DNA from: Escherichia phage AV125
DNA length: 64,000 bases
Sequence record: OR352955.1
Strand: one strand, 5' to 3'
Part shown: positions 23,271 through 50,362 of the stretch, piece after piece
Numbering within the stretch: the stretch's first letter is position 1
Layout of the letters: the number at the start of each line of letters is the position of its first letter
Position numbers and translations under genes: made by a program
The notes under the pieces: generated by a model
Database searches by the model: none
What the model was told of the DNA's origin: nothing
Seen by the model: only the letters and a program-made list of their open reading frames with translations

Positions 23271-23390
23271 GGGGATAACATGAATCCGAAAGATATGCAA
23301 GCATGGAAAGGGTACGACGATCTAAGCGCCTTGCGCAATAAGTCAAGCCGTAACCTTAGACGGTTGGAAGCAAAGAAAAAGAAAAAATAG

Positions 23391-23446
23391 TTTGACAAGT
23401 CCGCGTAGTCTGGTAATATGTATCTTGTAGGGCGGCAATGGTGCCG
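23391..23446 (+). promoter_or_regulatory. early promoter + leader stem-loop cassette 17
   Basis: TTGACA 23391; TAATAT 23413; hairpin GGGCGGCAATGGTGCCGC. Confidence 0.55.
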
Positions 23447-23468
23447 CTCACAAGAAGAGAGAAAAATC

Positions 23469-23753: not shown

Positions 23754-23754
23754 T

Positions 23755-23816
23755 TTGACAACAGGCAAACAACGTAGTAAAGTTTATTACATAGAGCGGC
23801 GGAATGGTCCACCGCT
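23755..23816 (+). promoter_or_regulatory. early promoter + leader stem-loop cassette 18
   Basis: TTGACA 23755; TAAAGT 23778; hairpin GCGGCGGAATGGTCCACCGC. Confidence 0.55.
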
Positions 23817-23838
23817 CACAACAGAAGAGAAACAAATC

Positions 23839-24009
23839 ATGATCCCGACTATGTTTTATGTATCGCGCAAAGGTCACAATATTTTTTGGTCTGAAGATTT
23901 AAATGAAGCTATGACGTTTGCCCGTGATCGTGTTGCTATCGGTGGCGTTAACATCACCGTAACCGATGAAAATGGCATTGAATACTATAACGGCAACGAT
24001 GAAGAATAA
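23839..24009 (+). CDS. small early protein (56 aa)
   Basis: Start ATG 23839 (MIPTMFYVSRKGHNIFW...); track start 23755 lies in promoter. Confidence 0.45.
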   Translation: MIPTMFYVSRKGHNIFWSEDLNEAMTFARDRVAIGGVNITVTDENGIEYYNGNDEE

Positions 24010-24015
24010 TTAATG

Positions 24016-24038
24016 AGGCGGGGGAGTATTCCCCGCCG
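24016..24038 (+). promoter_or_regulatory. intercistronic leader stem-loop with no promoter upstream
   Basis: GGCGGGGGA-gtat-TCCCCGCC immediately before RBS of 24057 gene. Confidence 0.5.
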
Positions 24039-24056
24039 TCAATAAAGAGGTAAATC

Positions 24057-24326
24057 ATGAAAATATCATTGGACGTTGCAATCAAGGCCATCGAATCCGG
24101 TTACATCCTGGTAAAAGATGATAAGGCTAAAACCGTGCACCACGTTAACAAAGAAACAGGCGAAAGCATGATCACATATAAAGCCGCCTACTTTCTCCAA
24201 TCAGTAGCAGATCCGCGCGTACAACGCCAGGTTACAGCGGCTATTGCTAAAAAATTATGTGCTTTACAGGGTATAAGTTTTAACGAGATCGCCCCGTGTT
24301 TTGACTGGTCGAGCTTGAAAAAATAG
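24057..24326 (+). CDS. small early protein (89 aa)
   Basis: ORF track. Confidence 0.5.
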   Translation: MKISLDVAIKAIESGYILVKDDKAKTVHHVNKETGESMITYKAAYFLQSVADPRVQRQVTAAIAKKLCALQGISFNEIAPCFDWSSLKK

Positions 24327-24327
24327 T

Positions 24328-24389
24328 TTGACAACAATTATAAATCGGGTAGAATGTATTTCGTAGGGCGGGGCAATAAGGCAACGCCC
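24328..24389 (+). promoter_or_regulatory. early promoter + variant leader stem-loop cassette 19
   Basis: TTGACA 24328; TAGAAT 24350; hairpin GGGCG...CGCCC. Confidence 0.5.
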
Positions 24390-24407
24390 ATTAATGAGGG
24401 TAGAATC

Positions 24408-24512
24408 ATGTTAGAGAAAATTTTCACGGTTGTAATAGTGGGCCTGGCGTTATCGGTTGGAGGGGTTGCAACTATGGCTAACATGATCCTATCTTCCCAC
24501 GGTATCGGCTAA
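24408..24512 (+). CDS. tiny membrane peptide (34 aa)
   Basis: Own translation MLEKIFTVVIVGLALSVGGVATMANMILSSHGIG. Confidence 0.3.
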   Translation: MLEKIFTVVIVGLALSVGGVATMANMILSSHGIG

Positions 24513-24522
24513 GGTGAAACAA

Positions 24523-24738
24523 ATGATCACGAATAAGACAGGTAAAACGGAATTTTTACGCGGCTTGCAAGTTGGTAAACCTGAGATCTGGCATTGTACT
24601 AAATCCGCGCATAATGAAATGAAAGATTTTACCGCTACTTTACAACGTGTTAAAATATCTATCACACAGAAAAAAGCCTTGTTAGTAGTAGAAAACGAGA
24701 TCCCGCAAACTATTATTATTGTCGAGCGTACAGCATGA
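24523..24738 (+). CDS. small early protein (71 aa)
   Basis: Track ORF 24514 (GTG) shortened to ATG 24523 after AAGGTG. Confidence 0.45.
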   Translation: MITNKTGKTEFLRGLQVGKPEIWHCTKSAHNEMKDFTATLQRVKISITQKKALLVVENEIPQTIIIVERTA

Positions 24739-25121
24739 AAACAGAAATCATTATTGAAATCATCAACGGTTATAAAGAAGCCTTTATTTTTGCTGAATCA
24801 GCAAGGGATCATGAAGGTAATTTTATTGAAAACTTAGACGATTATGATTTTTCTCCTAGCGCGGACGAACGGATCGCCCAGGATGTAACAGCCTTTATTA
24901 ATGCTAATCTTGCCGCTATCTCTGAGGCAATGAGCGACGGCGCAACAGCCAACCAGATCGGGAATGATTTACATTTTACCCGTAACGGTCACGGCGTAGG
25001 CTTTTGGGATCGCCCTGAAATATACACCACTAACACGGCGAACCGCCTAACCAATGCAGCTAAGTTTATGCCGAACGTGTCGGCTTACATTGGTGAAGAT
25101 AATTTGATTTATATTGAATAA
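24735..25121 (+). CDS. small early protein (128 aa)
   Basis: ATGA overlap with upstream gene. Confidence 0.55.
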   Translation: MKTEIIIEIINGYKEAFIFAESARDHEGNFIENLDDYDFSPSADERIAQDVTAFINANLAAISEAMSDGATANQIGNDLHFTRNGHGVGFWDRPEIYTTNTANRLTNAAKFMPNVSAYIGEDNLIYIE

Positions 25122-25127
25122 AAAGTA

Positions 25128-25183
25128 TTGACACAGATCGCCAGTGTGCTAATATTTACCACGTAGGGCGGCAATGGTGCCGC
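25128..25183 (+). promoter_or_regulatory. early promoter + leader stem-loop cassette 20
   Basis: TTGACA 25128; TAATAT 25150; hairpin GGGCGGCAATGGTGCCGCC. Confidence 0.55.
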
Positions 25184-25202
25184 CGATAATGAGGAAAGTA
25201 AA

Positions 25203-26937: not shown

Positions 26938-26999
26938 GCCCGAATAATGTTGATAGCTTTCGCCTATGAAAAACCGACACAGAACAAAACTGAATAAAT

Positions 27000-27420
27000 C
27001 ACGGTATCGAGCTAATCGACCATTAAACGAATAACCATACATCCCAGGGCAACAGGCTGTTAGAGAGCTATTTAGAGCGGTTAAAATCGATCAACAACCA
27101 ACAACAAACCATCAAAAACACCCTTTTACCTCTTTTCTAGTGCAATGATAACCATTATCATCTATCATTGATTATCTATTCAATATAAGTGCATAACTAT
27201 AATGTTGATAATAGTTCGCAACAACTAACCAACAAACAACATAAAACAATAAGCAAACTAATCATAATCAAAGGAATAATAGCAAGATGACTGATAACGA
27301 CAAACAATCAAACCATGATGAATATTAAACAAGATAACGATAACACGACAAAACAACCAACTAACGAACAATAACAAACGAAACCATTAAAAGATCAACT
27401 ATTAGCAAAATAGTGTATAT
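27000..27420. other. noncoding A/C-rich tract, strongly G- and T-depleted on plus strand
   Basis: Long runs such as aaccaacaaacaacataaaacaataagcaaactaatcataatc; no ORF on either strand. Confidence 0.6.
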
Positions 27421-27505
27421 TGCCATAATAGTGACTGAATGAAATCATTACAAAACGAATCATTCCAAGGATCATCATTAGCACGCTACGCCGGACACGT
27501 AGCGA

Positions 27506-27633
27506 GCTAATAATAAGCCAACTACACCCCAACAATCATAACCATCGGTGATGGTTATTTCTTGTTACTGCGTAGCTTGCAATAATTGCAAGCGTAATGA
27601 CGCTTACACTTATTGCGCTGGCTTATTATTAGC
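27506..27633. repeat. 128-bp element bounded by perfect 15-bp inverted repeats, with nested palindromes
   Basis: GCTAATAATAAGCCA (27506-27520) vs TGGCTTATTATTAGC (27619-27633); inside: ATAACCATC-ggt-GATGGTTAT (27538-27558), TTGCAAT-a-ATTGCAA (27577-27591), AAGCGT-aatg-ACGCTT. Confidence 0.6.
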
Positions 27634-28091
27634 ATTATATGTAATTACTAAGATCATAACATTAGCGCAATAACAATAATCATTGTAATAGTTACAAGAT
27701 GAGATCATTAGCAAGATGAATAATTGCACGTAGCAACATGAGCGAATAGCGACAGGTTGCATAGTGTGCACATAGTGTATAAACATACAAGAAAATAAAG
27801 GCTAATCTTTTGGGGGCGAATACTATCGCTACGCGATATGTTGAGCACCTTCTCTTAAACGTAAATAAAATCAGAATAATCTTGATTTATTTTAGTTTTT
27901 ATGTTAATAAACGTTTAAATAATAATCATTCTCATATAAATAATAGTCTGCTTGTCATGAGCGGGATCAGTTGACAATGTTCCGTCATATGATGAAGTTG
28001 CCAAACCATTGATAAATAAGTGTTTGTGTGATTTATAATCAAGTGGCCCACCTTGTCGCTACGTTGGTATGAGCCTTGCATAAGTCATTGA

Positions 28092-28120
28092 ATACGAATG
28101 ATAATTATTCTCATTCGTAT
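28092..28120. promoter_or_regulatory. operator-like inverted repeat sharing the ATGAGAA/TTCTCAT half-site
   Basis: ATACGAATGA-taattattc-TCATTCGTAT; related AATCATTCTCAT at 27924-27935. Confidence 0.45.
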
Positions 28121-28456
28121 GATATTTGGGAATTGTCGCTGCGTGGACCTGACGGCCCGAAAATTCGCGTTAAGCACTTCTTACGTATGCGCCATGATTT
28201 TTGCCATATGATATTGATTCTATTAGATATTCTTGCCATGATTGCCATGAAACAGGGTGTCCCGAAATAATCTCTCCCCGTAGATATTTTGGGTTACTTT
28301 TTATACAAGAGTGGGGTGTCAAAAATAATCGGTATATATAGGATAATTGATAGGAATCCCCTATGATAATTCGATTGTAATTCCCTAAGATTGATCGTAT
28401 GATGTTGGTGATTGATGATTGCCATGAAAGATGGCTAACGATGAGAGGAGATTGTC

Positions 28457-32840: not shown

Positions 32841-33017
32841 ATGGCTACTTTTCAACAATTGAAAGATGTTTCACGTTTAGTAAGAAAAATCCGAGAAGCA
32901 GACGCTGCTGTGCGGAATGCATTAACGCCAGCAGAGCGTGAAGATCTTGAAGAGGAGGTTAAAACAGCCGAGAATGCTTTTGCTGTGTATCTTTCAACAC
33001 TGTACACAGGGGGTTAA
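32841..33017 (+). CDS. hypothetical protein (58 aa)
   Basis: Start ATG 32841 after AAAGGAGGAAG. Confidence 0.4.
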   Translation: MATFQQLKDVSRLVRKIREADAAVRNALTPAEREDLEEEVKTAENAFAVYLSTLYTGG

Positions 33018-33332
33018 ATGTCAGAAGAACTTAAAGAATTTTATCAAGCCTATCATAATTGGCTGTTAGCTGGTGCTCCAGATAATAATCCTTTCTGGCA
33101 CGATAAAGGTTTGTGCAGTTGCCTCTATCTTTGGTCTGGTGGTTATGATGACCTAAATTATGAAATGCAAATGCAATTTCGAGAAGCAGGATTGTCTGAA
33201 GAATACCCGTTTGATGACGGAGACTGGTTTAAATATGATTTTGCACAAAGAAACGGGCTATTGCATTTGAATGCTGCCCGTATAAGATGGGTAAAAGATC
33301 ATGCTACACAGGAGGATGTGCAATGCCAATAG
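33018..33332 (+). CDS. paralog family A member 3 (104 aa)
   Basis: FYQAYHNWLLAGAPDNNPF..GLCSCL..EMQMQF..AGL..PF....RIRWVKDH. Confidence 0.6.
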   Translation: MSEELKEFYQAYHNWLLAGAPDNNPFWHDKGLCSCLYLWSGGYDDLNYEMQMQFREAGLSEEYPFDDGDWFKYDFAQRNGLLHLNAARIRWVKDHATQEDVQCQ

Positions 33333-33523
33333 TGTTTAGTTTCTTGGTAATTGTTATGGTTGTTCTTTTCGCGGCATGGCTTTGGGATTTTGACCCAGGA
33401 GCAGCGCAGCAAAGAGCTACAGACTGGAAAGAACAATGTATTGTGCTCAAACATGAACGAAATGCAGAGAAATTTCTTGACCTGGAGTGTGATCGCCTTG
33501 TAAGATACAAGCAAGACAAATAA
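33323..33523 (+). CDS. small membrane-anchored protein (66 aa)
   Basis: Start ATG 33323; MPIVFSFLVIVMVVLFAAWLW transmembrane helix. Confidence 0.45.
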   Translation: MPIVFSFLVIVMVVLFAAWLWDFDPGAAQQRATDWKEQCIVLKHERNAEKFLDLECDRLVRYKQDK

Positions 33524-33537
33524 CCTTGAGGTGCAAA

Positions 33538-33726
33538 ATGGTAATTGAGATTAAACTTGAGTATGCTGGCGCTGTTGCTCTGATCGCACAAATGCTTGGA
33601 GCAAAGATTGAAGAAGTGTATATCAACGCTTGGAGCGTAGAGATTGATGTTCCTATGGACAACATTGCTAATCGCTTGCTGGTGGCAGAGTGTGAACGCA
33701 CCAACATAATCTACAAAGGAGCATAA
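33538..33726 (+). CDS. hypothetical protein (62 aa)
   Basis: Start ATG 33538 after GAGGTG. Confidence 0.4.
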   Translation: MVIEIKLEYAGAVALIAQMLGAKIEEVYINAWSVEIDVPMDNIANRLLVAECERTNIIYKGA

Positions 33727-33727
33727 T

Positions 33728-33949
33728 ATGAAAATTAGAGTTTGTGATGTATTGGGTTATGTTGGTTTTGAGAATGTTCAGATTCCTTTTGTTGTTGAAG
33801 CACATCTTGTTAGTGAGGATATGACAACATTCTTTGTTACGATAGAAGAAATGTCCAAAGTTGAGGGATGGGAGTGGTTTGAAGAAGATGTTTGGGAAGG
33901 TTGTGATTACGTATTCTTCTCTGATGAAGTGAATGTTCTTTCGGAGTAG
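33728..33949 (+). CDS. hypothetical protein (73 aa)
   Basis: ORF track; AAGGAG upstream. Confidence 0.5.
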   Translation: MKIRVCDVLGYVGFENVQIPFVVEAHLVSEDMTTFFVTIEEMSKVEGWEWFEEDVWEGCDYVFFSDEVNVLSE

Positions 33950-33951
33950 GT

Positions 33952-34158
33952 ATGTCTTGTTTTACAAAAGCAGTATCCATATGTAAGAAACAGTATGAAA
34001 GTGATTACGGAATATTTAATATTCCAGCGGATCATACAGAGTATTGTTCATGTGGTGGCAGAATGAAGAAAACAGTGATTTATGCGGATAATGGAGATGA
34101 ACTTGTTCCGGTTATTGTTTGCAAAGCTTGTCATTCTGTTAAAACATTAAAAGCGTAA
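33952..34158 (+). CDS. zinc-ribbon protein (68 aa)
   Basis: CSCGG...CKAC cysteine pairs. Confidence 0.45.
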   Translation: MSCFTKAVSICKKQYESDYGIFNIPADHTEYCSCGGRMKKTVIYADNGDELVPVIVCKACHSVKTLKA

Positions 34159-34253
34159 GGAGTCGGGACACCCGACGATTGGAGCTAAAAATTTTGCGTA
34201 CAACCCTTTTCGCCCAACAGGGGCGCGTCGGGTAAATAAAGAGGAGAGTTTAT

Positions 34254-34652
34254 ATGAAAAAGATCATCGTAGGTTTCTTGTTACTCATTGCATCACTTGG
34301 AACAGCAAATGCGTCTCAAGTTTATGAGTGTGTGTCAGATGTGGTTGTTAAAAATCTGAAAGGTGAAGTGATTTCTGGTCCTAAGAAAATGGCTTCTGTT
34401 GTCATTAATAAAGATAACTCCTTTATCCTTAAAAATTCAGGCGGTGCTTTGATGAGTGGCATTCTGCAATACACAGGAGAAAAAAGTAAAGATGGTAGTG
34501 CTATGTACGGTTCACAACAATTTATTGGCACTACTGAAGTTGTGATGATGCGCACAGAGTATCGAGACACTTTGGCTTGGTTTGCATTTCTAAAAAATGA
34601 TAAAACAATAACGAATGTTCTTACTCTAGAAGCTGATTGTACGCAACGATAA
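34254..34652 (+). CDS. predicted secreted protein (132 aa)
   Basis: Signal-peptide-like MKKIIVGFLLLIASLGTANA. Confidence 0.55.
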   Translation: MKKIIVGFLLLIASLGTANASQVYECVSDVVVKNLKGEVISGPKKMASVVINKDNSFILKNSGGALMSGILQYTGEKSKDGSAMYGSQQFIGTTEVVMMRTEYRDTLAWFAFLKNDKTITNVLTLEADCTQR

Positions 34653-34662
34653 GGGAGTATTT

Positions 34663-35109
34663 ATGACTAAAGTGCGACATTATGCTGTAAACTGCAATGA
34701 TGTTTGGCGTTTGTGTCCTGATGATCCGACAGAAGGCACATTTGTAAGATATGAGGATTATAAAGAGTTATCGGATGCTGTGATCGCATTGTTAACTGAT
34801 ATCCGTTCACGTTATCCAGGACAAGATTTCACTTGCCCTCACATCAAACTTCTTGCTTGTCTGGTAGAAGGTGAGAAAGAAGTGGAAGATGGCTTCAAGC
34901 GTGTAGAGTATCAAGGTGAAACTTTAGAGGTTCCTGAATTTGTTAATTATATTGCAACAGATTCGAGTGGCGAGCGTTATGGCTACAGCCATAAGCCAGA
35001 GATTCCTGATTGGATTCCCGCTTGGAGATATTCCGTTAGTACCGGAGACTATATCTTCCTTGGTGTAGGTAGTAGTAAGGATTGGCGTTTCTCTTTGACA
35101 GAGGTTTAA
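34663..35109 (+). CDS. hypothetical protein (148 aa)
   Basis: ORF track; AAGGGAG upstream. Confidence 0.55.
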   Translation: MTKVRHYAVNCNDVWRLCPDDPTEGTFVRYEDYKELSDAVIALLTDIRSRYPGQDFTCPHIKLLACLVEGEKEVEDGFKRVEYQGETLEVPEFVNYIATDSSGERYGYSHKPEIPDWIPAWRYSVSTGDYIFLGVGSSKDWRFSLTEV

Positions 35110-35113
35110 TAAT

Positions 35114-35377
35114 ATGGAAGAAACATTGCCAGCAGCATATCGTTTGAATGATGAGCGTATTTGGGAGTGGACCGACGTTTCTTGTTTTTACCCTGAAATA
35201 GTTCAATATTGGCGAGCGAAAGGGTGTGTTGTAGTTATCAACCCTTGTGGACCAGTAGATGAAGATTGCTTGTATCTCGATGGGAAGTGGCACAGTTATT
35301 GTCGCTGGGCTTTTGAGTGGATGTGTAAAGAAGATCTCCCAGAGGGTTGGGAGTATCCAAAAGCAAATAGGAGATAA
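35114..35377 (+). CDS. hypothetical protein (87 aa)
   Basis: ORF track. Confidence 0.5.
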   Translation: MEETLPAAYRLNDERIWEWTDVSCFYPEIVQYWRAKGCVVVINPCGPVDEDCLYLDGKWHSYCRWAFEWMCKEDLPEGWEYPKANRR

Positions 35378-35378
35378 T

Positions 35379-35741
35379 ATGTCTAAAGATTTTGTTGAAG
35401 TATTTGTCAAAGATGAAGAAACTGGTTTAGGCACGGGTTTCATTTGTGAAGAAACTTTTAAGCGTGAACAAGAAAAAGCTATTCTTATGCACCGCTATGA
35501 TCATGCATTAGAACAATGGAAAAATGCAGAACAAAAATGCAAAAACCTTTATGCAGAAAATAGAAAACTACAAGATCAAATGGAGTTGTTAGCTATCAGT
35601 TTACGATCTCTCATTTTGGCTGTAGAAGACGGTTTTAAAAATCCAGATGGTTTTCCTGTGAGCGATATTGAACATGATTTGTATCTTGCTCGTGGTGCTT
35701 ACTTTTATGTTAAACAGAAGTCTGTAGAAGGAGAGAAGTGA
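35379..35741 (+). CDS. hypothetical protein (120 aa), predicted coiled coil
   Basis: Track ORF 35259 shortened to ATG 35379 after TAGGAGA, removing overlap with 35114 gene. Confidence 0.5.
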   Translation: MSKDFVEVFVKDEETGLGTGFICEETFKREQEKAILMHRYDHALEQWKNAEQKCKNLYAENRKLQDQMELLAISLRSLILAVEDGFKNPDGFPVSDIEHDLYLARGAYFYVKQKSVEGEK

Positions 35742-35938
35742 TGGAAGAAAAACTGGAACGTATTATCGAGTTAGCCATGTCTATTGGCTACGACGATTGT
35801 TTTCTCCAAACTATTGGAGAAACACAGAACGATTACGACTCTTGGGTGAAAGAGTTGGAAGAACTCAAAACTTCCTTGATTGCTGACTTTGCTGAAGCAG
35901 AGGATAAAGCGGATCGTTACAACTATCTGTGTCGATAA
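35738..35938 (+). CDS. hypothetical protein (66 aa)
   Basis: ATGA overlap. Confidence 0.45.
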   Translation: MMEEKLERIIELAMSIGYDDCFLQTIGETQNDYDSWVKELEELKTSLIADFAEAEDKADRYNYLCR

Positions 35939-35941
35939 ACC

Positions 35942-35969
35942 TTGACATTTCTTTTATGTATGGTATACA
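35942..35969 (+). promoter_or_regulatory. sigma70-type promoter
   Basis: TTGACA 35942 - 16 nt - TATACA 35964. Confidence 0.4.
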
Positions 35970-36000
35970 TACATTATCAACGTGAGCAAGGTGGTGTAAT

Positions 36001-36273
36001 ATGAATAAAGATCGGTTTCTTTCTTTAGTCGCGGAAGCGCCTTTTGATGTTCTTGGGGTGAGATTATGGAAAGACAGAAACTATGGGTTAGATGTTCAAA
36101 CATATTCTCTTTGGTTGGTTGGGGAGCACAGCTTAGATGAAAGCTTGTGCATGGGTAGGGATTCTCGTTCCCTTTGTTTAAAGTTTAGAAGCTTAGAACG
36201 CGCAAACAAAGAGCAAGAAAAACTAACGAGGTGGCTAAATGAAAACAAGCGCAGGGTTGATGGAGTTTTATAA
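36001..36273 (+). CDS. hypothetical protein (90 aa)
   Basis: ORF track; AAGGTGG upstream. Confidence 0.5.
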   Translation: MNKDRFLSLVAEAPFDVLGVRLWKDRNYGLDVQTYSLWLVGEHSLDESLCMGRDSRSLCLKFRSLERANKEQEKLTRWLNENKRRVDGVL

Positions 36274-36565
36274 AATTTATCTAGCATGGATTGATGTTGG
36301 TGCTCCTGATGGTAAACCTTTTCGGCGGGATTGTGGTTTGTGTGCCAACTTGTTCGATTATGTGCACAGAGGTAATTACAATCCCCTTATAACAACCTTG
36401 TCAGATGAAATGCACGCACAGTTTTACCACAAAGGGTTGAGTCAAGAATTACCCTTCAATGAGAACTACGATGCATATGTCTTAGAATCAGATGCAGGGG
36501 TATGTCACCTGAACGTGGACAGGATTAATTGGGTAAGAGATCGTATTGCAGAGGAGGATGAATAA
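36239..36565 (+). CDS. paralog family A member 4 (108 aa)
   Basis: FYKIYLAWIDVGAPDGKPF..GLCANL..EMHAQF..GL..PFN...CHLNVDRINWVRDRI. Confidence 0.55.
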   Translation: MKTSAGLMEFYKIYLAWIDVGAPDGKPFRRDCGLCANLFDYVHRGNYNPLITTLSDEMHAQFYHKGLSQELPFNENYDAYVLESDAGVCHLNVDRINWVRDRIAEEDE

Positions 36566-36792
36566 TGTCGGATTATAACTGGTATGAACTTGAAGCTGTT
36601 TGTCAGTTTTATGATTCAATAGTTCTGCGTGATCCAATCTGTCAAGAATTAAGTCGCCGTGCAAGTGCATTGGCAATCCGTGTTAAAATAAACGGTTGGA
36701 ACGCAGATTTGGAAAAAGAGTTGGCATTTCTCTTAGAAAACACGCGGGTCTTCCGCAAAGTGTTCCCTGAATGGTTTGAGATGGAGGAATAA
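36565..36792 (+). CDS. hypothetical protein (75 aa)
   Basis: ORF track. Confidence 0.5.
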   Translation: MSDYNWYELEAVCQFYDSIVLRDPICQELSRRASALAIRVKINGWNADLEKELAFLLENTRVFRKVFPEWFEMEE

Positions 36793-36794
36793 CC

Positions 36795-37010
36795 ATGTGG
36801 ATTGTCCGTCTTAAATATGATGGTCCAGGTTCTTGGGTGCATAATGTTTGTGGTTGCGATTCCGAAGAAGCAGCACACAAAGCAGGAAGAGCAGTAAGTG
36901 CCTTCTATAATGACAAACCTCTTTGTTTAGAGATGGCAGGTGTGGTGAGCATGAGTATGTTTGAATACTACTCCTATGATATTAAAAAACATGAAGGAGA
37001 GTGGAAATGA
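36795..37010 (+). CDS. hypothetical protein (71 aa)
   Basis: ORF track; GGAGGAATAACC upstream. Confidence 0.5.
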   Translation: MWIVRLKYDGPGSWVHNVCGCDSEEAAHKAGRAVSAFYNDKPLCLEMAGVVSMSMFEYYSYDIKKHEGEWK

Positions 37011-37327
37011 GCGAAGAACTATTAACATTTTACCGCACGTATTTGGCATGGTTGGAAGCTGGTGCTCCTGAAGGTGAACCGTTCACCCGTTGCACAGGTT
37101 TGTGCTCTAACCTCTATGATTTTTACGATATGGGGGAAAGCGAACGATACGAACCTGTACTGGATGAAATGCATGAGCAGTTCTACCGCAAAGATTTGGT
37201 TATGGTATTGCCTTTCAACAGTAATTTTGGAAAGTACACCTTAGAAGCGGAAAAAAGCCGCTGTCATTTGAATGTGGATCGTGTGAACTGGGTAAAAGAA
37301 CGTGTAGCAGAAGAAATAATTGGTTGA
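37007..37327 (+). CDS. paralog family A member 5 (106 aa)
   Basis: Start ATG 37007 (ATGA overlap); FYRTYLAWLEAGAPEGEPF..GLCSNL..EMHEQF..PFN..CHLNVDRVNWVKERV. Confidence 0.6.
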   Translation: MSEELLTFYRTYLAWLEAGAPEGEPFTRCTGLCSNLYDFYDMGESERYEPVLDEMHEQFYRKDLVMVLPFNSNFGKYTLEAEKSRCHLNVDRVNWVKERVAEEIIG

Positions 37328-37381
37328 CAGAAGGATCTGTCTTTGTCATAATCATCTCATCGAAACAGAGAGGAGAAAATC

Positions 37382-37795
37382 ATGAAAAAATTTATTTGCA
37401 CCCGTTCCACTAACAGTGATATCCTTGTAGGTAAGGTTATCAAAGGAGAACTCTTCCATGCAAATGGTAAGAAATATATCCTGCTGAAAGATTCTTTCAA
37501 CGGGGAATATCCGCGCTGCACTTTCTTTAATTACAACACTCCATTTGCTTTAGAAGGAGATGCTTGGGAATGGGCTGAACTCAATCCTTGTTGTGAAGAA
37601 GAAGAATCTATGTTCTTAGGTTTAAACGTTTACCGTGTAGATTACACCATGTGCGGAGCGGAACATTCTGTTCGCGTAGAAGCCGAATCCAAACTACAAG
37701 CACCTTTCAAGGCAGGATTGACTTTGGGTCATTGTTTGGCAAACATTGAAGATGTTGTGATCCAAAGAGTTGTTTTAGAGAAAGAGGCTATTTGA
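37382..37795 (+). CDS. hypothetical protein (137 aa)
   Basis: ORF track; GAGAGGAG upstream. Confidence 0.55.
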   Translation: MKKFICTRSTNSDILVGKVIKGELFHANGKKYILLKDSFNGEYPRCTFFNYNTPFALEGDAWEWAELNPCCEEEESMFLGLNVYRVDYTMCGAEHSVRVEAESKLQAPFKAGLTLGHCLANIEDVVIQRVVLEKEAI

Positions 37796-37849
37796 CAGAA
37801 GACGGTACAATATTTAAAATATAAAGATTAACCACAAAAGGAGAGAAAC

Positions 37850-38149
37850 ATGCAAGTTGAAGACCTGATCAAGATTCTGAATAAAGCCAAAGAGAAGGGT
37901 GCTATCAAAGACTGGAAACGTGAAACAAGTGAAGACCTATCTCACTGTTGCCGAGAATTTTACATCGAAGGTATTGCTGACGATCATTATATTATCGAAT
38001 GGTATATCAACTTAATGACTCTTAAGCACGGTTCGTTTGAGGTTTGGTTTGATGATATTGATGTAAATGGTTTTCATCCTGGCTATAAAATCGCTATGCA
38101 GTTATCTTATCGTAGAGAAGTTGTAGCACATTTGGGTTTACATAACTAA
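37850..38149 (+). CDS. hypothetical protein (99 aa)
   Basis: ORF track. Confidence 0.55.
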   Translation: MQVEDLIKILNKAKEKGAIKDWKRETSEDLSHCCREFYIEGIADDHYIIEWYINLMTLKHGSFEVWFDDIDVNGFHPGYKIAMQLSYRREVVAHLGLHN

Positions 38150-38159
38150 GGAGAAAAGA

Positions 38160-38483
38160 ATGCAAGCAGTTGTTAACGAAGCTATTATGAACTTATCCTT
38201 TTTGTTAGCTGGTTTAGGAGGTGTTCTCATAGGTTTGGCTCTTATCTGGTGTATTCGTCGATTAATCGGGTACCGACAAAAAGGTGTTTCATGTTTTGTA
38301 TCTTACAATTTTACAACTGCTTACAGCAATGAGGTTGGATCTGGCAATGCTCAAGCATTTTTACCAACATATCCTCCTACGGTGGAAGATATTCGAAACT
38401 TGGAAGTAGAACTTATGGGACTAAGTGATAACTATACATCTCTAGTTATTCAAAATATTTTTCGACTAAAACAGGAGGCGTGA
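38160..38483 (+). CDS. membrane protein (107 aa)
   Basis: Hydrophobic LSFLLAGLGGVLIGLALIWCI. Confidence 0.5.
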   Translation: MQAVVNEAIMNLSFLLAGLGGVLIGLALIWCIRRLIGYRQKGVSCFVSYNFTTAYSNEVGSGNAQAFLPTYPPTVEDIRNLEVELMGLSDNYTSLVIQNIFRLKQEA

Positions 38484-38696
38484 ATGAAGGTACATTACCC
38501 TCATCCCTTTGATCCTAAAAACAAAGCCGTAATTCTTCGTCAGTGGCAACGGGTTTGTCGTACTAAATGTCCAATCAATAGCCCACACAATGTAGACAAG
38601 GACTATCTTGGGACATTTGTTGAATACACTTACATAGACAAAAACAAGCGTAAACAACATGTCGAGGAATACTGCTTAAGAGTAGAATGGCTGTAA
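38484..38696 (+). CDS. hypothetical protein (70 aa)
   Basis: ORF track. Confidence 0.5.
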   Translation: MKVHYPHPFDPKNKAVILRQWQRVCRTKCPINSPHNVDKDYLGTFVEYTYIDKNKRKQHVEEYCLRVEWL

Positions 38697-38708
38697 ATAA
38701 TAAATACC

Positions 38709-38737
38709 TTGACAAGTGTTTATTCGTTTTGTAAAGT
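38709..38737 (+). promoter_or_regulatory. sigma70-type promoter
   Basis: TTGACA 38709 - 17 nt - TAAAGT 38732. Confidence 0.4.
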
Positions 38738-38766
38738 GAGGATACAGCAATGGTTTAGGAGTGGTT

Positions 38767-39438
38767 ATGAAAAAGTTTGTTGTTTACAGTCGTCTTTCTA
38801 AACAGAAAAAAGGTGAGGCACAATATGGTATGGAGAGCCAAGAGAACGATATCCGTTACTTCTTAGACTCTGTGCCTGATGCGGAAGTTATTGGTCAATT
38901 TTCTGAATACTATTCGGGTAAGGGCGATTGGAAGCAACGTAAGGAACTGGTTAAAGCGGTTGAAATGTGTAAAGCTACCGGAGCAACTTTATTGGTAGCT
39001 AAAGTTGACCGCTTGGGTCGTAACAACGCCTCCGTAGCAACTCTTCTAGAAATGATCGATGTTAAGATAGCCATCATGCCAGACGCAGATAAAATGGTTA
39101 TACAGCTTCTGTCTGTTCTGGCTGAACAAGAAGTTAGAGGTATTGCTGATCGTATTAAAAAGGGTCTTGCTGTAGCAAAAAGCAAAGGTGTTTTATTAGG
39201 CAGTGCTAATCCTAAAACTGCCGCTGCACGTAGAAAAGGAAAAATGGAATACAACTCTGTTAAAGCAGACGCTTTTGCAGAGACATTCCGTGAACGTTTG
39301 GAGATCCTTAGAGATTTAAATACACCTTACAAAACTATTGCTGAAAAATTCAATAGTAAGAAAATAGCAACAGCACGTGGTGGTAAATGGGATGCTAAAA
39401 CTGTTTCTCGTTTGTGTGCCAGACTGAACATTAAATAG
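38767..39438 (+). CDS. serine recombinase (resolvase/invertase family)
   Basis: 223 aa; N-terminal VVYSRLSKQKK (catalytic Ser context), LLVAKVDRLGRN and QLLSVLAEQEVRGIADRIKKGLAVAKSKGVLLG match resolvase catalytic-domain motifs as remembered. Confidence 0.7.
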   Translation: MKKFVVYSRLSKQKKGEAQYGMESQENDIRYFLDSVPDAEVIGQFSEYYSGKGDWKQRKELVKAVEMCKATGATLLVAKVDRLGRNNASVATLLEMIDVKIAIMPDADKMVIQLLSVLAEQEVRGIADRIKKGLAVAKSKGVLLGSANPKTAAARRKGKMEYNSVKADAFAETFRERLEILRDLNTPYKTIAEKFNSKKIATARGGKWDAKTVSRLCARLNIK

Positions 39439-39446
39439 GAGAGGAT

Positions 39447-39869
39447 ATGAAACAAGAAAATGAATCTGTAGATCACTTAATCATGCTGTCAGCCCTTTTT
39501 GCCGGATGGGACGTATTTTTTGAAAATTTGTTCAATTCTGCTACAGATGGTTCCGATTTTATGCGCCAGTTTAAACGACGAACTGTTGAGGACTATGCTT
39601 TCTATTCAGGTCGGATTGAAAAAGGTTACGAAGATACAAATACAACACTCACCATTAAAGTTTTAGATGTGATGTTTAGTGTTATAGATGCTATCGACGA
39701 AAGTCTTCCGATCCTAGACAATTGTAATACGAAAGCCTATGTTTACAAAATAGCTCGTGCTTATGTGTCTGCAAACAGTTGTCTTCTTTCCACCCAGATT
39801 GCCGTGAACAATCTTGCCAACTTGTTTGACGAAGGAGAAACTTTTTATGACAATCGATTTGAAGTGTAA
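39447..39869 (+). CDS. hypothetical protein (140 aa)
   Basis: ORF track. Confidence 0.5.
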   Translation: MKQENESVDHLIMLSALFAGWDVFFENLFNSATDGSDFMRQFKRRTVEDYAFYSGRIEKGYEDTNTTLTIKVLDVMFSVIDAIDESLPILDNCNTKAYVYKIARAYVSANSCLLSTQIAVNNLANLFDEGETFYDNRFEV

Positions 39870-40212
39870 GAGGATTCTTTTAGATTTCTATAATAATTGG
39901 TTAGAACACCTCCGTCTCTTTCCAAGAGAAAGTGGTTACGCTGATGTTGGCTTATGCCGAGGTCTGCGTATGTATATAAGTGATGAATTTCGGTCCGAGC
40001 ATTCTTTAGCATATTCTGTTTATGGTATGCAATTAGCCAGTTTTGAAAACGCTGGCTTAGATACAACTTTCCCATTTAACACAGCAAAATCTTTTGAGCA
40101 AGAGTGTAAGGAAAAACGTTGCATGTTTAATGAAAAACGTGTACAGTGGGTTAAGGATCGAGTTAAACAATTGGAACAAGAGTTGGATTTCTTTTATGAC
40201 GAGGCAGAATAA
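39847..40212 (+). CDS. paralog family A member 6 (121 aa)
   Basis: Start ATG 39847; FYNNWLEH..GLCRGL....AGLDTTFPFN..RVQWVKDRV. Confidence 0.55.
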   Translation: MTIDLKCKRILLDFYNNWLEHLRLFPRESGYADVGLCRGLRMYISDEFRSEHSLAYSVYGMQLASFENAGLDTTFPFNTAKSFEQECKEKRCMFNEKRVQWVKDRVKQLEQELDFFYDEAE

Positions 40213-40484
40213 TGGATAGACAAACCTTAAAAACAATGGCAGATGCTACTAATTCCCCGTACTTTGAAAAAGTAAGTAAATTGGTAGTTCAAGCCGCAGA
40301 GGAAGGATATTATAACATAAACATCCACAACCCAAATCTTATACTAGAAATGCCAAGCGATAAGAAGATACAAGAGAGTATCTGTGAAGGTATTGTTAGT
40401 TACTGGCGCGAGCGTGGGTGTGGTGCAAACATGGCTTTAGACAGTGCAAACATTGTAAGATATATAAATATTTCTTGGGGGTGA
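40212..40484 (+). CDS. hypothetical protein (90 aa)
   Basis: Overlapping start with upstream stop. Confidence 0.5.
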   Translation: MDRQTLKTMADATNSPYFEKVSKLVVQAAEEGYYNINIHNPNLILEMPSDKKIQESICEGIVSYWRERGCGANMALDSANIVRYINISWG

Positions 40485-40488
40485 TTTT

Positions 40489-41100
40489 ATGATTCAATGC
40501 ACTCATATCCAAATTACTTGGAGAGATGAACTTTACCATTTGGGACAATTTACTGTAGGGGAAACATACCCTGTCATTAAACATAATCCTAACATCGCAA
40601 ACTTTGACAGGATGGTTCTTGTTGAGGACGATCTAGGTCAAACTTATTCTTTAGATCTAAAATATCCGTTTTCTTACGGCTACGATTGGATCGTTACTTT
40701 TGAAGACGTGGAGGAAAATAAAGCAATGAACGAAAAAAATTCTTGGTATTATCGTTGTGAACTGCCGCCAGTAGGTGAAAAGGTTATCTTTGTTCCTGAT
40801 TTGGAAAGATATTCTTGGGACAGTTCTTATTCTGTTCCTAAAGAAGGCACCGAAGTTGAAGTTATTGCACATCGCACAACTTCACATGGTAACGATGTAG
40901 CAGTTGTTTTCTGGGATGATGAAGGCGCTGCTTGTGCAGGTGGCTTTGTTGCAGGTAATTTTGAACCCCTGCCAGATCCTTTGAAGGAGGCAATTTTAGG
41001 CGTAGCTTCTTTTGGACTCTCTTACACATCTGCACAAGAGATCGTAGAAGGTATTTTAAACGGTACCGTTCCAAACGAAATTTTTAAACAGATTAAATAG
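40489..41100 (+). CDS. hypothetical protein (203 aa)
   Basis: ORF track. Confidence 0.6.
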   Translation: MIQCTHIQITWRDELYHLGQFTVGETYPVIKHNPNIANFDRMVLVEDDLGQTYSLDLKYPFSYGYDWIVTFEDVEENKAMNEKNSWYYRCELPPVGEKVIFVPDLERYSWDSSYSVPKEGTEVEVIAHRTTSHGNDVAVVFWDDEGAACAGGFVAGNFEPLPDPLKEAILGVASFGLSYTSAQEIVEGILNGTVPNEIFKQIK

Positions 41101-41106
41101 TAGTTG

Positions 41107-41130
41107 CACCCCGTTCTGCGGGGTGTTATT
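41107..41130 (+). terminator. intrinsic terminator or attenuator
   Basis: CACCCCG-ttctg-CGGGGTG then TTATTGTAT. Confidence 0.45.
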
Positions 41131-41151
41131 GTATACGTAAAGGAGGCGCTA

Positions 41152-41511
41152 ATGTATTACACTGAAGACTACATATTGTATAACTTTTTTAAAGGCTGGT
41201 TGGAATGGGCGGAAAAAGCTCCTGTTGGAGATTGTGTTTTTCCTTGGGACTCTCGTCAAGGTTTGTGTCGTTGTTTGGAAGACTGGCTTATAACCACAAG
41301 CTACAATTCAGAGACTAAGAAATCTACATCAAAGAGACTAAAAATGTTATTTGAAGAAGATGGTTTAGATCCGATTTATCCTTTCGGTGCTGAAAGCTTC
41401 CACAATGGTCTTTTTCTTGGCACTCAACATTATGACAAAGATCGCGTAGATTGGGTAAAAGAAAAGGTAGCACAGTATGAATGGGGGCTAAGACTTATCA
41501 TCGTTGGTTAG
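41152..41511 (+). CDS. paralog family A member 7 (119 aa)
   Basis: Start ATG 41152 after AAGGAGG; FFKGWLEWAEKAPVGD..GLCRCL...DGLDPIYPFG..RVDWVKEKV. Confidence 0.55.
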   Translation: MYYTEDYILYNFFKGWLEWAEKAPVGDCVFPWDSRQGLCRCLEDWLITTSYNSETKKSTSKRLKMLFEEDGLDPIYPFGAESFHNGLFLGTQHYDKDRVDWVKEKVAQYEWGLRLIIVG

Positions 41512-41681
41512 AAAGTTATATTAAGAAATGTGAACTTGGTGTTCCAGGCTATACTTACGACACGGACGAGATCCTTGATGAAATGGAAGTTTGGTTTAAA
41601 GATCCTCGTGAACTATTGGAAAACATTCTAATGGCTTGGGATGGTACGGCACAAAGCATTGAAGGAGGTAGAAATGAGTAA
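41481..41681 (+). CDS. hypothetical protein (66 aa)
   Basis: ORF track; overlaps end of upstream gene in another frame. Confidence 0.4.
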   Translation: MGAKTYHRWLESYIKKCELGVPGYTYDTDEILDEMEVWFKDPRELLENILMAWDGTAQSIEGGRNE

Positions 41682-41808
41682 GAAATTGTTTAATATTCGT
41701 GAGAACCGTGATGGATCGTTCTCTGTAGTCAATGAGTTTAACGTTTCGGTTGGGACTTTTATTACTAAACGTCAAGCAGAACAAGTAAGAGATACTTTAA
41801 ACAAGTAA
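41674..41808 (+). CDS. small hypothetical protein (44 aa)
   Basis: Own translation MSKKLFNIRENRDGSFSVVNEFNVSVGTFITKRQAEQVRDTLNK after GGAGGTAG. Confidence 0.35.
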   Translation: MSKKLFNIRENRDGSFSVVNEFNVSVGTFITKRQAEQVRDTLNK

Positions 41809-41825
41809 ATTTTTAAGGGGGACTT

Positions 41826-42245
41826 ATGTTAGGTAAGATCAAAGCCTTTTTCAAACGTATTATCGAAGGAAGTCCAACAGAAGGTGCATTAGGAAGATCT
41901 CTAACAGGAGAACCGCTTGCCATAATTTCTATCAGTCGGTATGGTGGATATTCAATTAAACAAACACCTTTAGGTATAGAAGGTAGTATGCTTTCTTGGA
42001 CAATATCTCAAGTTGGTGATAATAGGCTTGCAGCTATAGCATTGCTTCGTGGGGAGTATGACTATTGTTTATCAGCACCTTGTAAAAAGCACCTCATAGA
42101 GCACATTAGAGACAGAGTAGAAAGAGAAGGCGGATACTTCTTCGAAACTAAGAGAAACAAACAAGGAACTCTTGACTTCACTAAGGTTTACTGGGACAAT
42201 CATACTCGTCAAACTGTTGAACAACTTCTGGAGGAAAGATGTTAA
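41826..42245 (+). CDS. hypothetical protein (139 aa)
   Basis: ORF track. Confidence 0.55.
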   Translation: MLGKIKAFFKRIIEGSPTEGALGRSLTGEPLAIISISRYGGYSIKQTPLGIEGSMLSWTISQVGDNRLAAIALLRGEYDYCLSAPCKKHLIEHIRDRVEREGGYFFETKRNKQGTLDFTKVYWDNHTRQTVEQLLEERC

Positions 42246-42448
42246 AAGCTTTTGCTATATACTCTACTGTAGGATTCTTTTATTGGATTATAGTTATTGT
42301 TGGATGTTGGTTAGGTTCTTGTGTTGTGATGGGAGAATGGTTAACATACAATGTATTTGAATGGGATGTAGTTTGTAGATCATTACTTGTTATATGGACT
42401 GTTATTGTTTGTTGGATAACTGTTAGTCTAACATTGGATCTATACTGA
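42239..42448 (+). CDS. membrane protein (69 aa)
   Basis: Two hydrophobic segments. Confidence 0.5.
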   Translation: MLKAFAIYSTVGFFYWIIVIVGCWLGSCVVMGEWLTYNVFEWDVVCRSLLVIWTVIVCWITVSLTLDLY

Positions 42449-42546
42449 TTAATAGATGGTAGATAGATGATCATAGTTTATCTACCTTCACTTACGTTTC
42501 ATACCTCACTATCGTGAGTAACATGAAACATTATTATATAGAAATC

Positions 42547-42607
42547 TACTACTCGCTATCGCTCGTAAACATATGTTTAGGGTACCATATTTTTTTGAAA
42601 AAGTCAA
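42547..42607. repeat. copy 2 of ~60-bp repeated intergenic element
   Basis: TACTCGCTATCGCTCG...TTAGGGTACCATATTTTTTTGAAAAAGTCAA; copy 1 at 8256-8313. Confidence 0.7.
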
Positions 42608-42741
42608 TGCTGATTCACCTATCAATTATCTGTTTAAGATAAGTCTTACCTATCAATCTAACTCTTAACTAGTATTGCACCTATAGTAAGACTATTCCTA
42701 TAGTTATTAACCCTCTTCTTCTGTAGAATGTAATTAGATCC

Positions 42742-42770
42742 TTGACAAACTCACAAAGCTTATGTTACAT
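42742..42770 (+). promoter_or_regulatory. sigma70-type promoter
   Basis: TTGACA 42742 - 17 nt - TTACAT 42765. Confidence 0.4.
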
Positions 42771-42808
42771 TGTGTCTCACAAGTGAATAATACCAAACAG
42801 GAGGAAGA

Positions 42809-43024
42809 ATGAGTTCCAATTTTCTATACAAAGCAAAAGATTCACGAGATGGAGAGAACCATTGGTGGTTGATCACAGCAGATGGTGTTATCATCCTACC
42901 GTGGGACGGAGAGACGAAAGTTCAAATACTAGAGAAAGTAAAAGGTGTTAGTTTTAATGTTAGTCATGATATAACAACTTTCAAAGCTTTTGCTATGAAT
43001 CCTAGTCTTGTTGCTGAATGGTAA
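42809..43024 (+). CDS. hypothetical protein (71 aa)
   Basis: ORF track; AGGAGGAAG upstream. Confidence 0.5.
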   Translation: MSSNFLYKAKDSRDGENHWWLITADGVIILPWDGETKVQILEKVKGVSFNVSHDITTFKAFAMNPSLVAEW

Positions 43025-43037
43025 TCCAGGAGAAGAT

Positions 43038-43256
43038 ATGACTAAAATGTATGCAGCCGTTGATAAGCTGGATGGGTCTGATTCTGTTTTTATTTTGAAT
43101 AAAATGGGTGTCTTAGTTTATGCCCGAACTTCTCAAAACATAGAGCACCAAGTGGAAGCAGCACAAATTTTAGAGCAAATAACCCCTCCATACCTATACT
43201 CAAATGTTGAGCGTTTTAACGATGCACTTGGTTTGACGTTAATAGCGGAATGGTAA
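43038..43256 (+). CDS. hypothetical protein (72 aa)
   Basis: Start ATG 43038 after CAGGAGAAG. Confidence 0.45.
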   Translation: MTKMYAAVDKLDGSDSVFILNKMGVLVYARTSQNIEHQVEAAQILEQITPPYLYSNVERFNDALGLTLIAEW

Positions 43257-43456
43257 TAATGGCGAAAATGTTGAAAATTGATAATGTCGTAACAATCACT
43301 ACGTCCATACCTTGTCCTCCTATGCCTTGCCCCTATTGTGGTGGTGCAGGATATGTTATGGCGGATGTAGGTCAAATTTACGAGTGTAACCCGTGCAAAA
43401 CCACAGGTTATATCCAAATAGAATCAGAGGAGAAACACTATGAGCCAAAACGCTAA
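43250..43456 (+). CDS. zinc-ribbon protein (68 aa)
   Basis: CPPMPCPYCGG....CNPCKTTG cysteine pairs; start uncertain. Confidence 0.4.
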   Translation: MVIMAKMLKIDNVVTITTSIPCPPMPCPYCGGAGYVMADVGQIYECNPCKTTGYIQIESEEKHYEPKR

Positions 43457-43889
43457 AGAAAAAGAAGTAATCACAGTAATCCGTCAGATGGAAGGTGCCG
43501 AAAACAATGCTTTTGTTACTAAGATTCTTCTTAATATCTTTGAAGATGTTATTTTAAACAATCCTGGTCATAAAGATTATCAGTATGATGTTATGATGGG
43601 TGCTTTGCTTGAGATTAACAAAAACACTTTTGCTGAATATGAGCAACACATGCTTTTACCAGAGGAAGATCAGGATTATTTGTTATCTGGTGCTTTAAGT
43701 GCACAAGAAAATTTCTACCACGTTCTTAATATGGCTTATGCAGATGAACTTGCTGTTTCCCTTGAAGAGCGTATTCAAATGGTTCGTGATGTGATGAATG
43801 AACAAATCCAAGAAGTTGAAGACTTGGTAGCAGAACCTTTAGCAGAAATTCGTGCAGCTATTGAAAAACAAAAAGGAACTCAATCATGA
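43440..43889 (+). CDS. hypothetical protein (149 aa)
   Basis: ORF track; GAGGAGAAAC upstream. Confidence 0.55.
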   Translation: MSQNAKEKEVITVIRQMEGAENNAFVTKILLNIFEDVILNNPGHKDYQYDVMMGALLEINKNTFAEYEQHMLLPEEDQDYLLSGALSAQENFYHVLNMAYADELAVSLEERIQMVRDVMNEQIQEVEDLVAEPLAEIRAAIEKQKGTQS

Positions 43890-44053
43890 TGCAAGTAGGT
43901 GATGTGGTTTGCCTTAAAGGTGCAAACAAACAAATGACAGTAATAGAAAGTTATGGTGAATCTTGTAAAGTAACTTGGTTCGATGAAAACGGGGAATTGC
44001 AACACGCCATATTCGATCAAAAAGCTTTGAGGAAGGTTGAAGAAAAAGAATGA
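43886..44053 (+). CDS. small hypothetical protein (55 aa)
   Basis: Own translation MMQVGDVVCLKGANKQMTVIESYGESCKVTWFDENGELQHAIFDQKALRKVEEKE; ATGA overlaps at both ends. Confidence 0.35.
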   Translation: MMQVGDVVCLKGANKQMTVIESYGESCKVTWFDENGELQHAIFDQKALRKVEEKE

Positions 44054-45605: not shown

Positions 45606-45627
45606 AACCCGCTTCGGCGGGTTTTTT
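45606..45627 (+). terminator. intrinsic terminator
   Basis: AACCCGC-ttcg-GCGGGTT then TTTTTT. Confidence 0.7.
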
Positions 45628-50340: not shown

Positions 50341-50362
50341 AAAAAACCCGCCGAAGCGGGTT
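50341..50362 (-). terminator. intrinsic terminator
   Basis: AACCCGC-cgaa-GCGGGTT with T-run on minus strand. Confidence 0.6.

Follow-up and report, generated by a model that had tools for sequence, protein, structure and literature searches.

A conserved small serine recombinase gene in Phapecoctavirus genomes and its possible modes of action

Escherichia phage AV125 (OR352955.1) encodes a protein that, by its domain and active-site residues, is a small serine recombinase of the PF00239 superfamily. It falls in a clade that is itself uncharacterised, within a well-known family of enzymes, and the gene is already in public records, mostly annotated. The DNA analysed here, a 64,000-nt stretch given as a single strand 5′ to 3′ and referred to as the window, derives from a Phapecoctavirus (phAPEC8-like, subfamily Stephanstirmvirinae) and is 96–98.5% identical to about 64 GenBank records. 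The recombinase is very probably an active enzyme that benefits the phage in nature. We tentatively prefer, at a probability of roughly one in three, to read it as a self-regulated enzyme of the resolvase type that would use a single site on each genome copy and convert multimers to unit circles or promote crossover between genomes.

The recombinase gene, its product and its upstream region

The gene starts with an ATG at 38767 and its stop codon ends at 39438, giving a product of 223 aa plus stop; an alternative in-frame GTG at 38761, upstream of the ATG, is a less likely start. The features of the locus are as follows.

38767..39438, + strand: serine recombinase gene (open reading frame and translation, PF00239, PHROG 125)
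38767..39204, + strand: catalytic domain and helix E, aa 1–146 (invariant residues, AF2 model, Foldseek)
39205..39435, + strand: C-terminal helical DNA-binding region, aa 147–223 (HTH with an 'RG..W' insertion)
38757..38761, + strand: RBS AGGAG, 5 nt ahead of the ATG (sequence reading)
38709..38737, + strand: sigma-70-type promoter, TTGACA-17 nt-TAAAGT, 10/12 consensus match (scan)
38699..38724, no strand assigned: candidate cognate site or operator, the weak quasi-palindrome AATAAATACCTTG-A-CAAGTGTTTATT, with the −35 hexamer at its centre

Pfam PF00239 (Resolvase) spans aa 5–142 (E=5e-18, 66 bits; gathering cut-off 23.3) and PHROG 125, labelled 'DNA invertase', is matched at E=3e-32, in agreement with the preliminary description of a small resolvase/invertase-family gene of 223 aa at 38767–39438. 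Among solved structures the best sequence matches are Tn3 and gamma-delta resolvase (E=3e-6 to 4e-5, aa 45–146), and the solved DNA-invertase chains 4m6f and 3uj3 show weak similarity (E=0.006–0.01); every curated NCBIfam model scores far under its cut-off. Eight residues (Y7, R9, S11, Q25, R58, D81, R82 and R85) are invariant in an alignment of 39 homologues reaching down to 31% identity, and the Y-x-R-x-S and D-R-x-x-R motifs are both present, with S11 as the nucleophile. The AF2 model (pLDDT 88) has a resolvase catalytic fold, a long helix E (109–139) and a four-helix C-terminal region, and the top Foldseek hits are exclusively serine recombinases, with the catalytic domains of Sin, gamma-delta, TP901-1 and Bxb1 at E ~1e-6.

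The C-terminal region gives no Pfam match to HTH_7 (PF02796) even at E<=1, and structurally it resembles not HTH_7 but the opening portion of the 'recombinase domain' of large serine recombinases, and the 'RG..W' insertion is typical of the start of that domain. PF07508 (Recombinase) matches weakly at aa 187–216, and neither a zinc-ribbon nor a coiled-coil 'large' domain is found in the 223-aa protein, so that the reported lack of an integrase-type large domain stands.

The promoter sits in the 70-bp intergenic gap between the preceding gene and the recombinase. A comparable promoter precedes every orthologue read (among them those of Justusliebigvirus, the Klebsiella relatives, Shewanella phages 1/4 and 1/40, and ICP1), and we concur with the preliminary description that the gene has its own promoter at 38709. 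The quasi-palindrome over the −35 box has a gapped-palindrome score of 8.5, at about the top 0.1% of centres in a scan of 30–46 kb, and the chance that one of about eight comparable palindromes lands in the 70-bp upstream gap is estimated at roughly 3–5%. Its symmetry is owed partly to TTGACAA, which is naturally semi-palindromic, and it may simply reflect promoter composition. It is not conserved before the phiWec181, Tr1 or Justusliebigvirus orthologues, and no second copy occurs at up to 7 mismatches in either the window or the 149-kb ESCO37 genome. As the cognate site of the enzyme it is a weak lead, not a finding. Mismatch tracks of seven genomes (21 pairs) contain no mosaic breakpoint at 38712 in a test that is underpowered, the nearest mosaic boundary lying at ~38000 between the window and ESCO37; a recombination-breakpoint hotspot at the candidate site was rejected, as this underpowered test gave no peak across the seven genomes.

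In GenBank the identical protein goes by several names: hypothetical, DNA invertase, resolvase, serine recombinase, recombinase family protein and methionine ABC transporter ATP-binding protein. The last of these, as 'methionine/putative ABC transporter ATP-binding protein', is attached either to the recombinase or to the 70-aa upstream ORF (38484–38696) in records that include OR352956, MT496970 and LR597654, and in ESCO37_00221; it is a propagated mis-annotation.

Conservation and genome setting

All of the Phapecoctavirus records (64/64) carry the gene, and the protein is 99.6–100% identical in 62 phage records. Protein identities are distributed as follows.

61 phage records: 100%
One further phage record: 99.6%
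phiWec-type phages: 74%
Citrobacter phage Tr1: 67%
Justusliebigvirus: 57%
Klebsiella members of Stephanstirmvirinae: 52–55%
Vibrio and Shewanella myoviruses of 127–149 kb: 35–38%
ICP1, two isolates among the matches listed: 29.8%

Orthologues are present throughout the virulent subfamily Stephanstirmvirinae, and identity falls as phage divergence rises. The homologue in ICP1 isolate 2017_DRC_48 lies among accessory genes that are unnumbered in older ICP1 annotation.

At the level of sequence comparison, strong purifying selection on the recombinase is shown. In comparison with UP17 it differs by 4 synonymous and 0 non-synonymous changes and is the best-conserved gene locally, the immediate neighbours being nearly equal, and the protein is invariant across phages isolated on widely differing hosts among E. 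coli, Shigella and Klebsiella. In the comparison with phiWec181 the catalytic domain is 81% identical in nucleotides and 95% in amino acids, as against 36% amino acid identity in the C-terminal region; the DNA similarity forms an island of promoter plus catalytic domain that ends at the domain boundary, with unrelated flanking genes.

Phage Schickermooser (MK373788) has eight deletions of 1–7 bp within 390 bp (positions 3849–4232 of locus record L004, equivalent to window 38608–38998). They affect the upstream gene and the N-terminal half of the recombinase and destroy its frame, and the promoter and remaining locus are ~99% identical. This is either a true inactivation or a local assembly fault, and the disrupted copy suggests that the gene may be dispensable in the laboratory.

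A selfish or hitch-hiking cassette of promoter plus gene (a moron) that contributes nothing to the phage life cycle could account for several of these features: the homology island of promoter and catalytic domain amid unrelated flanks, the disrupted Schickermooser copy, and the differing contexts and orientations in Phapecoctavirus and Justusliebigvirus, where the place and direction of the gene relative to the methylase/DprA/phosphatase block are not the same. However, the gene is in 64/64 Phapecoctavirus records and the whole subfamily, its divergence parallels that of the phages (100, 74, 67, 57 and 52–55%), and it is under strong purifying selection. Repeat searches within ±6 kb and across the window also revealed no terminal repeats or target duplications around it, and we regard a moron as improbable.

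The 329-bp direct terminal repeat of Schickermooser maps to window 27844–28172, where many records begin; the two genome ends are thus joined within the window, and the recombinase is located ~10.9 kb from the left end. Direct terminal repeats in phAPEC8-like phages are 329–342 bp long, and these phages presumably package from concatemers. The recombinase is embedded in a rightward run of small genes with unknown functions, and the neighbours offer no functional clues, as 10 of 10 match solely PHROGs of unknown function. Its setting among small genes and a paralogue family, as noted in the preliminary description, is also seen here in the repeat families D1–D4 and in the two matches to PHROG 2510 (39847–40209 and 41152–41508). 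Neither a transposase nor transposon ends are found near the recombinase, the neighbours being small phage genes.

At least five small paralogous ORFs with common motifs are present in 33000–44000:

~33.0–33.3 kb: paralogue ORF
36239–36565: paralogue ORF
37001–37327: paralogue ORF
39847–40212: paralogue ORF
41152–41511: paralogue ORF

Two other observations concern the genome ends. A non-coding stretch of ~1.5 kb (26940–28450) spans the physical genome end and includes at least four Fur-box-like 19-mers (at 27141, 27669, 27915 and 28094) that match GATAATGATAATCATTATC at 14–15 of 19 positions; further ones are at 16491 and 16549 (16491–16567), and the window has 8 such matches vs ~3 in shuffles. 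The core of the 28094 box is conserved in Justusliebigvirus BME3 and matches at 17/19 in phiWec181, an improvement, suggesting that the host iron regulator may bind the phage genome ends. The strongest palindrome of the window (29 bp, 28092–28120) is within the terminal repeat; it was considered and rejected as a cyclisation site, because BME3 and phiWec181 keep the 19-bp Fur-box-like core alone and not its flanks. Towards the right end (17200–25200) there are 13 copies of TAAnnTGTATyACrTAGGGCGG, each followed by a GC-rich hairpin, before small + strand genes, and these look like a phage-specific promoter/terminator unit, which also supplies the chief direct repeats of the ESCO37 genome.

Recombination sites and relatives of the enzyme

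The preliminary description suggested that a segment nearby might be inverted to switch host range or expression, while failing to see a convincing pair of crossover sites by eye. Systematic repeat searches reproduce that failure: inverted or direct site pairs are at chance level both within ±6 kb of the gene and across the 64-kb window. The genome-wide search used ESCO37, whose genome is assembled completely (149,194 bp, 98.5% identical to the window). Its sole significant inverted repeat consists of two identical 22-bp terminator hairpins, and its direct repeats are all right-end promoter/hairpin units or terminators; no pair of recombination sites is thus present locally, in the window or in the complete genome of this relative. 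In the window the hairpins (AACCCGCTTCGGCGGGTTTTTT) are found in opposite orientation:

45606–45627: 22-bp terminator hairpin, one end of a 4.7-kb Sir2/methylase block
50341–50362: identical hairpin, opposite orientation, other end of the block

This pair was rejected as a set of crossover sites, as either arm is a terminator hairpin and the 4.7-kb segment is inverted in no genome.

A 25-kb query around the gene finds one collinear place on a single strand in at least 52 records, the hairpin-bounded segment included. These related genomes show one orientation over 25 kb, with no orientation polymorphism among them, and with neither paired sites nor inverted relatives the inversion proposal is unsupported. 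In four records, WPEC1, 2, 4 and 6 (PV659873, PV691511, PV682947 and PV763039; 155–161 kb), the 25-kb query has 9–10 places, as against one in all other relatives; these four may be duplicated or rearranged assemblies.

Phages Mu and P1 encode small serine invertases, and this precedent, along with the 'DNA invertase' label of PHROG 125, gives some reason to consider a Gin/Cin/Hin-like enzyme that flips a segment bounded by inverted sites and so switches host range or expression. A distant relative in a Pseudomonas aeruginosa prophage (37% identical) lends this further support: it follows tail genes, and a 20-nt, 85% inverted pair (positions 5703–5722 and 7881–7900 of locus record L010) brackets 2.2 kb containing a 366-aa ORF, the second arm being ~100 bp upstream of the gene. 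That segment is possibly invertible, as read from its sequence, and the clade may be functionally mixed, invertases included. For the AV125 enzyme, however, the absence of an above-chance inverted pair in the searches described, the single-strand collinearity of at least 52 genomes, the distance of ~64 kb to the tail-fibre genes, the lack of HTH_7 and the weak similarity to 4m6f and 3uj3 all make an invertase very unlikely.

Since paired sites are absent from the genome, the substrate of the recombinase must be either separate genome copies or other DNA. Multimer resolution and inter-copy exchange need only one site per genome, so the lack of repeats does not refute them, and the refuting criterion of the preliminary description is too strict.

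Full-length relatives (35–39% identity over ~98% coverage) are encoded on 124 plasmids, mostly non-mobilizable. On plasmids of 5.7–7.3 kb from Klebsiella, Marinovum, Synechococcus and Phaeobacter just 5–6 genes are annotated, the recombinase among them. Dyad elements of 34 and 64 bp lie directly upstream of it in the Klebsiella and Synechococcus plasmids, and on the Marinovum plasmid a 32-bp palindrome occurs ~440 bp upstream; TATCATTTGTTTGCCG-aa-CGGCAAATTTATGATA is an example of a plasmid palindrome. More than 540 relatives are also present in viral contigs. Among 56 non-redundant viral-contig loci, an upstream palindrome matching at >=11/14 within 250 nt was found in 15, compared with 25 of 336 control windows (Fisher p=9e-5), and the downstream regions of the same 56 loci are not enriched. 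The enriched palindromes are 30–36 bp long, and most of them have a 0–2 bp centre and begin 35–60 nt ahead of the start codon. Several loci share a palindrome of the class TACAAA-N8-ACG-NN-CGT-N8-TTTGTA, which ends 10–25 nt before the start codon.

One locus of that class is a P4-like element (L095) that encodes the recombinase together with a tyrosine integrase, an excisionase-like HTH protein and a primase; having its own tyrosine integrase, it does not need the serine enzyme as an integrase. A related context has primase/Toprim and DUF3987 genes with no integrase seen, and some relatives follow tail genes in prophages. The commonest context, a small autonomous circular replicon with a single gene-adjacent dyad, is a multimer-resolution signature. 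We found no experimental work in the literature on these small-plasmid and P4-like 'recombinase family protein' relatives.

Palindromes between promoter and start codon in relatives, and the quasi-palindrome centred on the −35 box in AV125, are also what would be expected of a DNA-binding regulator whose recombination activity would be vestigial and which would shut down its own promoter, and perhaps others; resolvases such as that of Tn3 are known autorepressors and provide a precedent. Invariance of all of the catalytic residues over deep divergence, including the serine nucleophile, is unexpected for a repressor, and we consider a purely regulatory role distinctly unlikely.

In the Shewanella phages 1/40 (L026, 5948–5979) and 1/4 (L027, 5950–5981) a 32-bp imperfect palindrome lies between the −35 box and the start codon of the orthologous gene, and its version in one phage is the exact reverse complement of that in the other. 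The upstream 60 nt are 97% identical and the downstream flank is near-identical, with one small indel. As read from the two sequences, the difference is a minute inversion of an asymmetric core flanked by 8-bp perfect arms.

An integrase enabling lysogeny or persistence might be suggested by the resemblance of the C-terminal region to the start of the large-serine-integrase recombinase domain and by the presence of some relatives in prophages. But the protein is without the zinc ribbon and coiled coil that large serine integrases use for att-site selection, the P4-like relative element has a separate tyrosine integrase, and neither the gene nor its flanking DNA has a match in 5,426 complete E. 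coli genomes (20,395 records). Prophage or plasmid copies in E. coli were accordingly rejected, none being found among these genomes, and the integrase reading is close to refuted.

Proposed mode of action and comparison with known systems

The relatives on plasmids and P4-like elements favour a resolvase-type, self-repressing module. In the preferred reading, the small serine recombinase would be made early from a host-type promoter and bind as a dimer to a single dyad-symmetric site of ~26–34 bp on each genome copy. This site is plausibly the quasi-palindrome that covers the −35 box of the gene, in which case binding would also bring about self-repression. Two sites on separate genome copies would then synapse, these being either sister copies (circular or concatemeric intermediates) or co-infecting genomes. 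Ser11 would cut at the central dinucleotide and the strands would be exchanged by subunit rotation, with the result that multimers would be reduced to unit circles, or a crossover made between genomes, with no switch within one genome. The site, the autoregulation and the substrate (phage multimers) are elements that we infer. Multimer resolution is a plausible alternative to inversion and is the one best supported by the occurrence of relatives on tiny plasmids and P4-like replicons.

The intact active site, the purifying selection and the promoter conserved in every lineage speak, as sequence features, for the resolvase-like model. Against it are the weakness of the candidate site and its lack of conservation in orthologues, the disrupted copy in Schickermooser, and the absence of a mosaic breakpoint at 38712 in the underpowered comparison. 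Moreover, with terminal repeats and presumed packaging from concatemers, a resolvase is not obviously necessary.

The main rival, itself a somewhat unlikely reading, is an early enzyme that excises, inverts or breaks DNA other than that of the phage, to the benefit of the phage; its target would be a site in the chromosome of the host or in a resident prophage, satellite or plasmid. This reading fits the position in an early accessory-gene block by the genome end with a host-type promoter, the lack of a convincing site in the ESCO37 and window searches, and the much faster evolution of the DNA-binding region than of the catalytic domain (36% vs 95%), although the DNA-binding domain commonly diverges faster in serine recombinases generally. 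The ICP1 homologue, found in two isolates among the matches listed and situated among accessory genes in 2017_DRC_48, is in keeping with a foreign target, whereas the invariance of the protein in phages from such varied hosts (E. coli, Shigella and Klebsiella) argues against a strain-specific one. Serine recombinases are known to be pivotal in phage-satellite conflicts (PMC9638900). ICP1 Adi was rejected as a precedent because it is not a recombinase.

A further proposal, which we consider unlikely, is that the enzyme is a trans-acting tool of a strictly virulent phage: either it recombines a specific site in the DNA of the host or of a resident mobile element, for example disabling a defence island, satellite or prophage, or it serves as a dedicated 'sex' site that forces crossover between co-infecting genomes; in both versions the fast-evolving DNA-binding region would set the target. 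We take the genome end near the recombinase to be the first to enter, from the early genes there.

The literature found on this gene holds just speculation or denial that it exists. One paper guesses that the enzyme keeps 'concatemers as single genomes' (PMC10282059), the announcement of ESCO5 and ESCO13 says that specific recombinases are absent (PMC5374246), and a second paper on therapeutic relatives likewise reports no recombinase gene (PMC10269720), contrary to which ESCO37_00220 is the recombinase gene. The same study describes REC, which was obtained in the laboratory by recombination of two relatives and one of whose crossovers falls within 11,573–34,365 (PMC10269720); this 22.8-kb interval contains the gene, which is compatible with any model and evidence for none.

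What matters in practice is that the gene is annotated inconsistently in the genomes of therapeutic phages. The phAPEC8-like phages are phage-therapy candidates, and a commercial phage cocktail from Russia has been found to contain a relative; safety screening for therapy excludes integrases and recombinases, and this gene is in 64/64 sequenced members under inconsistent labels. The evidence against a role in lysogeny is reassuring for such use. The biological question, modest in scope, is why virulent myoviruses retain such an enzyme across an entire subfamily.

Several known systems can be compared with the AV125 recombinase. Tn3 and gamma-delta resolvase are its best solved matches and are alike in catalytic residues, helix E and overall size, and a promoter and binding site before the gene is the resolvase pattern, the site being a candidate in AV125. 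Unlike them, the phage protein is without HTH_7 and the gene is not accompanied by a transposase or transposon ends; an ungapped scan of the 400 nt upstream found no Tn3-type three-subsite res, and a gapped scan gave one weak quasi-palindrome. Gin of Mu, Cin of P1, Hin and Pin are alike as phage-borne small serine recombinases sharing the PHROG label, but similarity to them is weak, and AV125 has no inverted site pair, invertible segment or tail-fibre adjacency, nor is orientation polymorphism of their kind seen in at least 52 genomes. The large serine recombinases (Bxb1, phiC31, TP901-1 and SPbeta) are 450–600 aa in length compared to 223 aa here, and the phage protein does not have the rest of their recombinase domain, the zinc ribbon or the coiled coil.

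The small-plasmid and P4-like 'recombinase family protein' relatives share 35–39% full-length identity, the C-terminal region included, together with the same layout and a palindrome just upstream of the gene; they differ in being on small circles with an obvious need for multimer resolution, rather than in a 150-kb virulent phage with terminal repeats. Cre/loxP of P1 is a tyrosine recombinase system, unrelated in family and chemistry, of a temperate, plasmid-forming phage, but it provides a functional analogy to the resolvase-type reading, in that a phage enzyme with a single site per genome recombines genome copies and resolves dimers.
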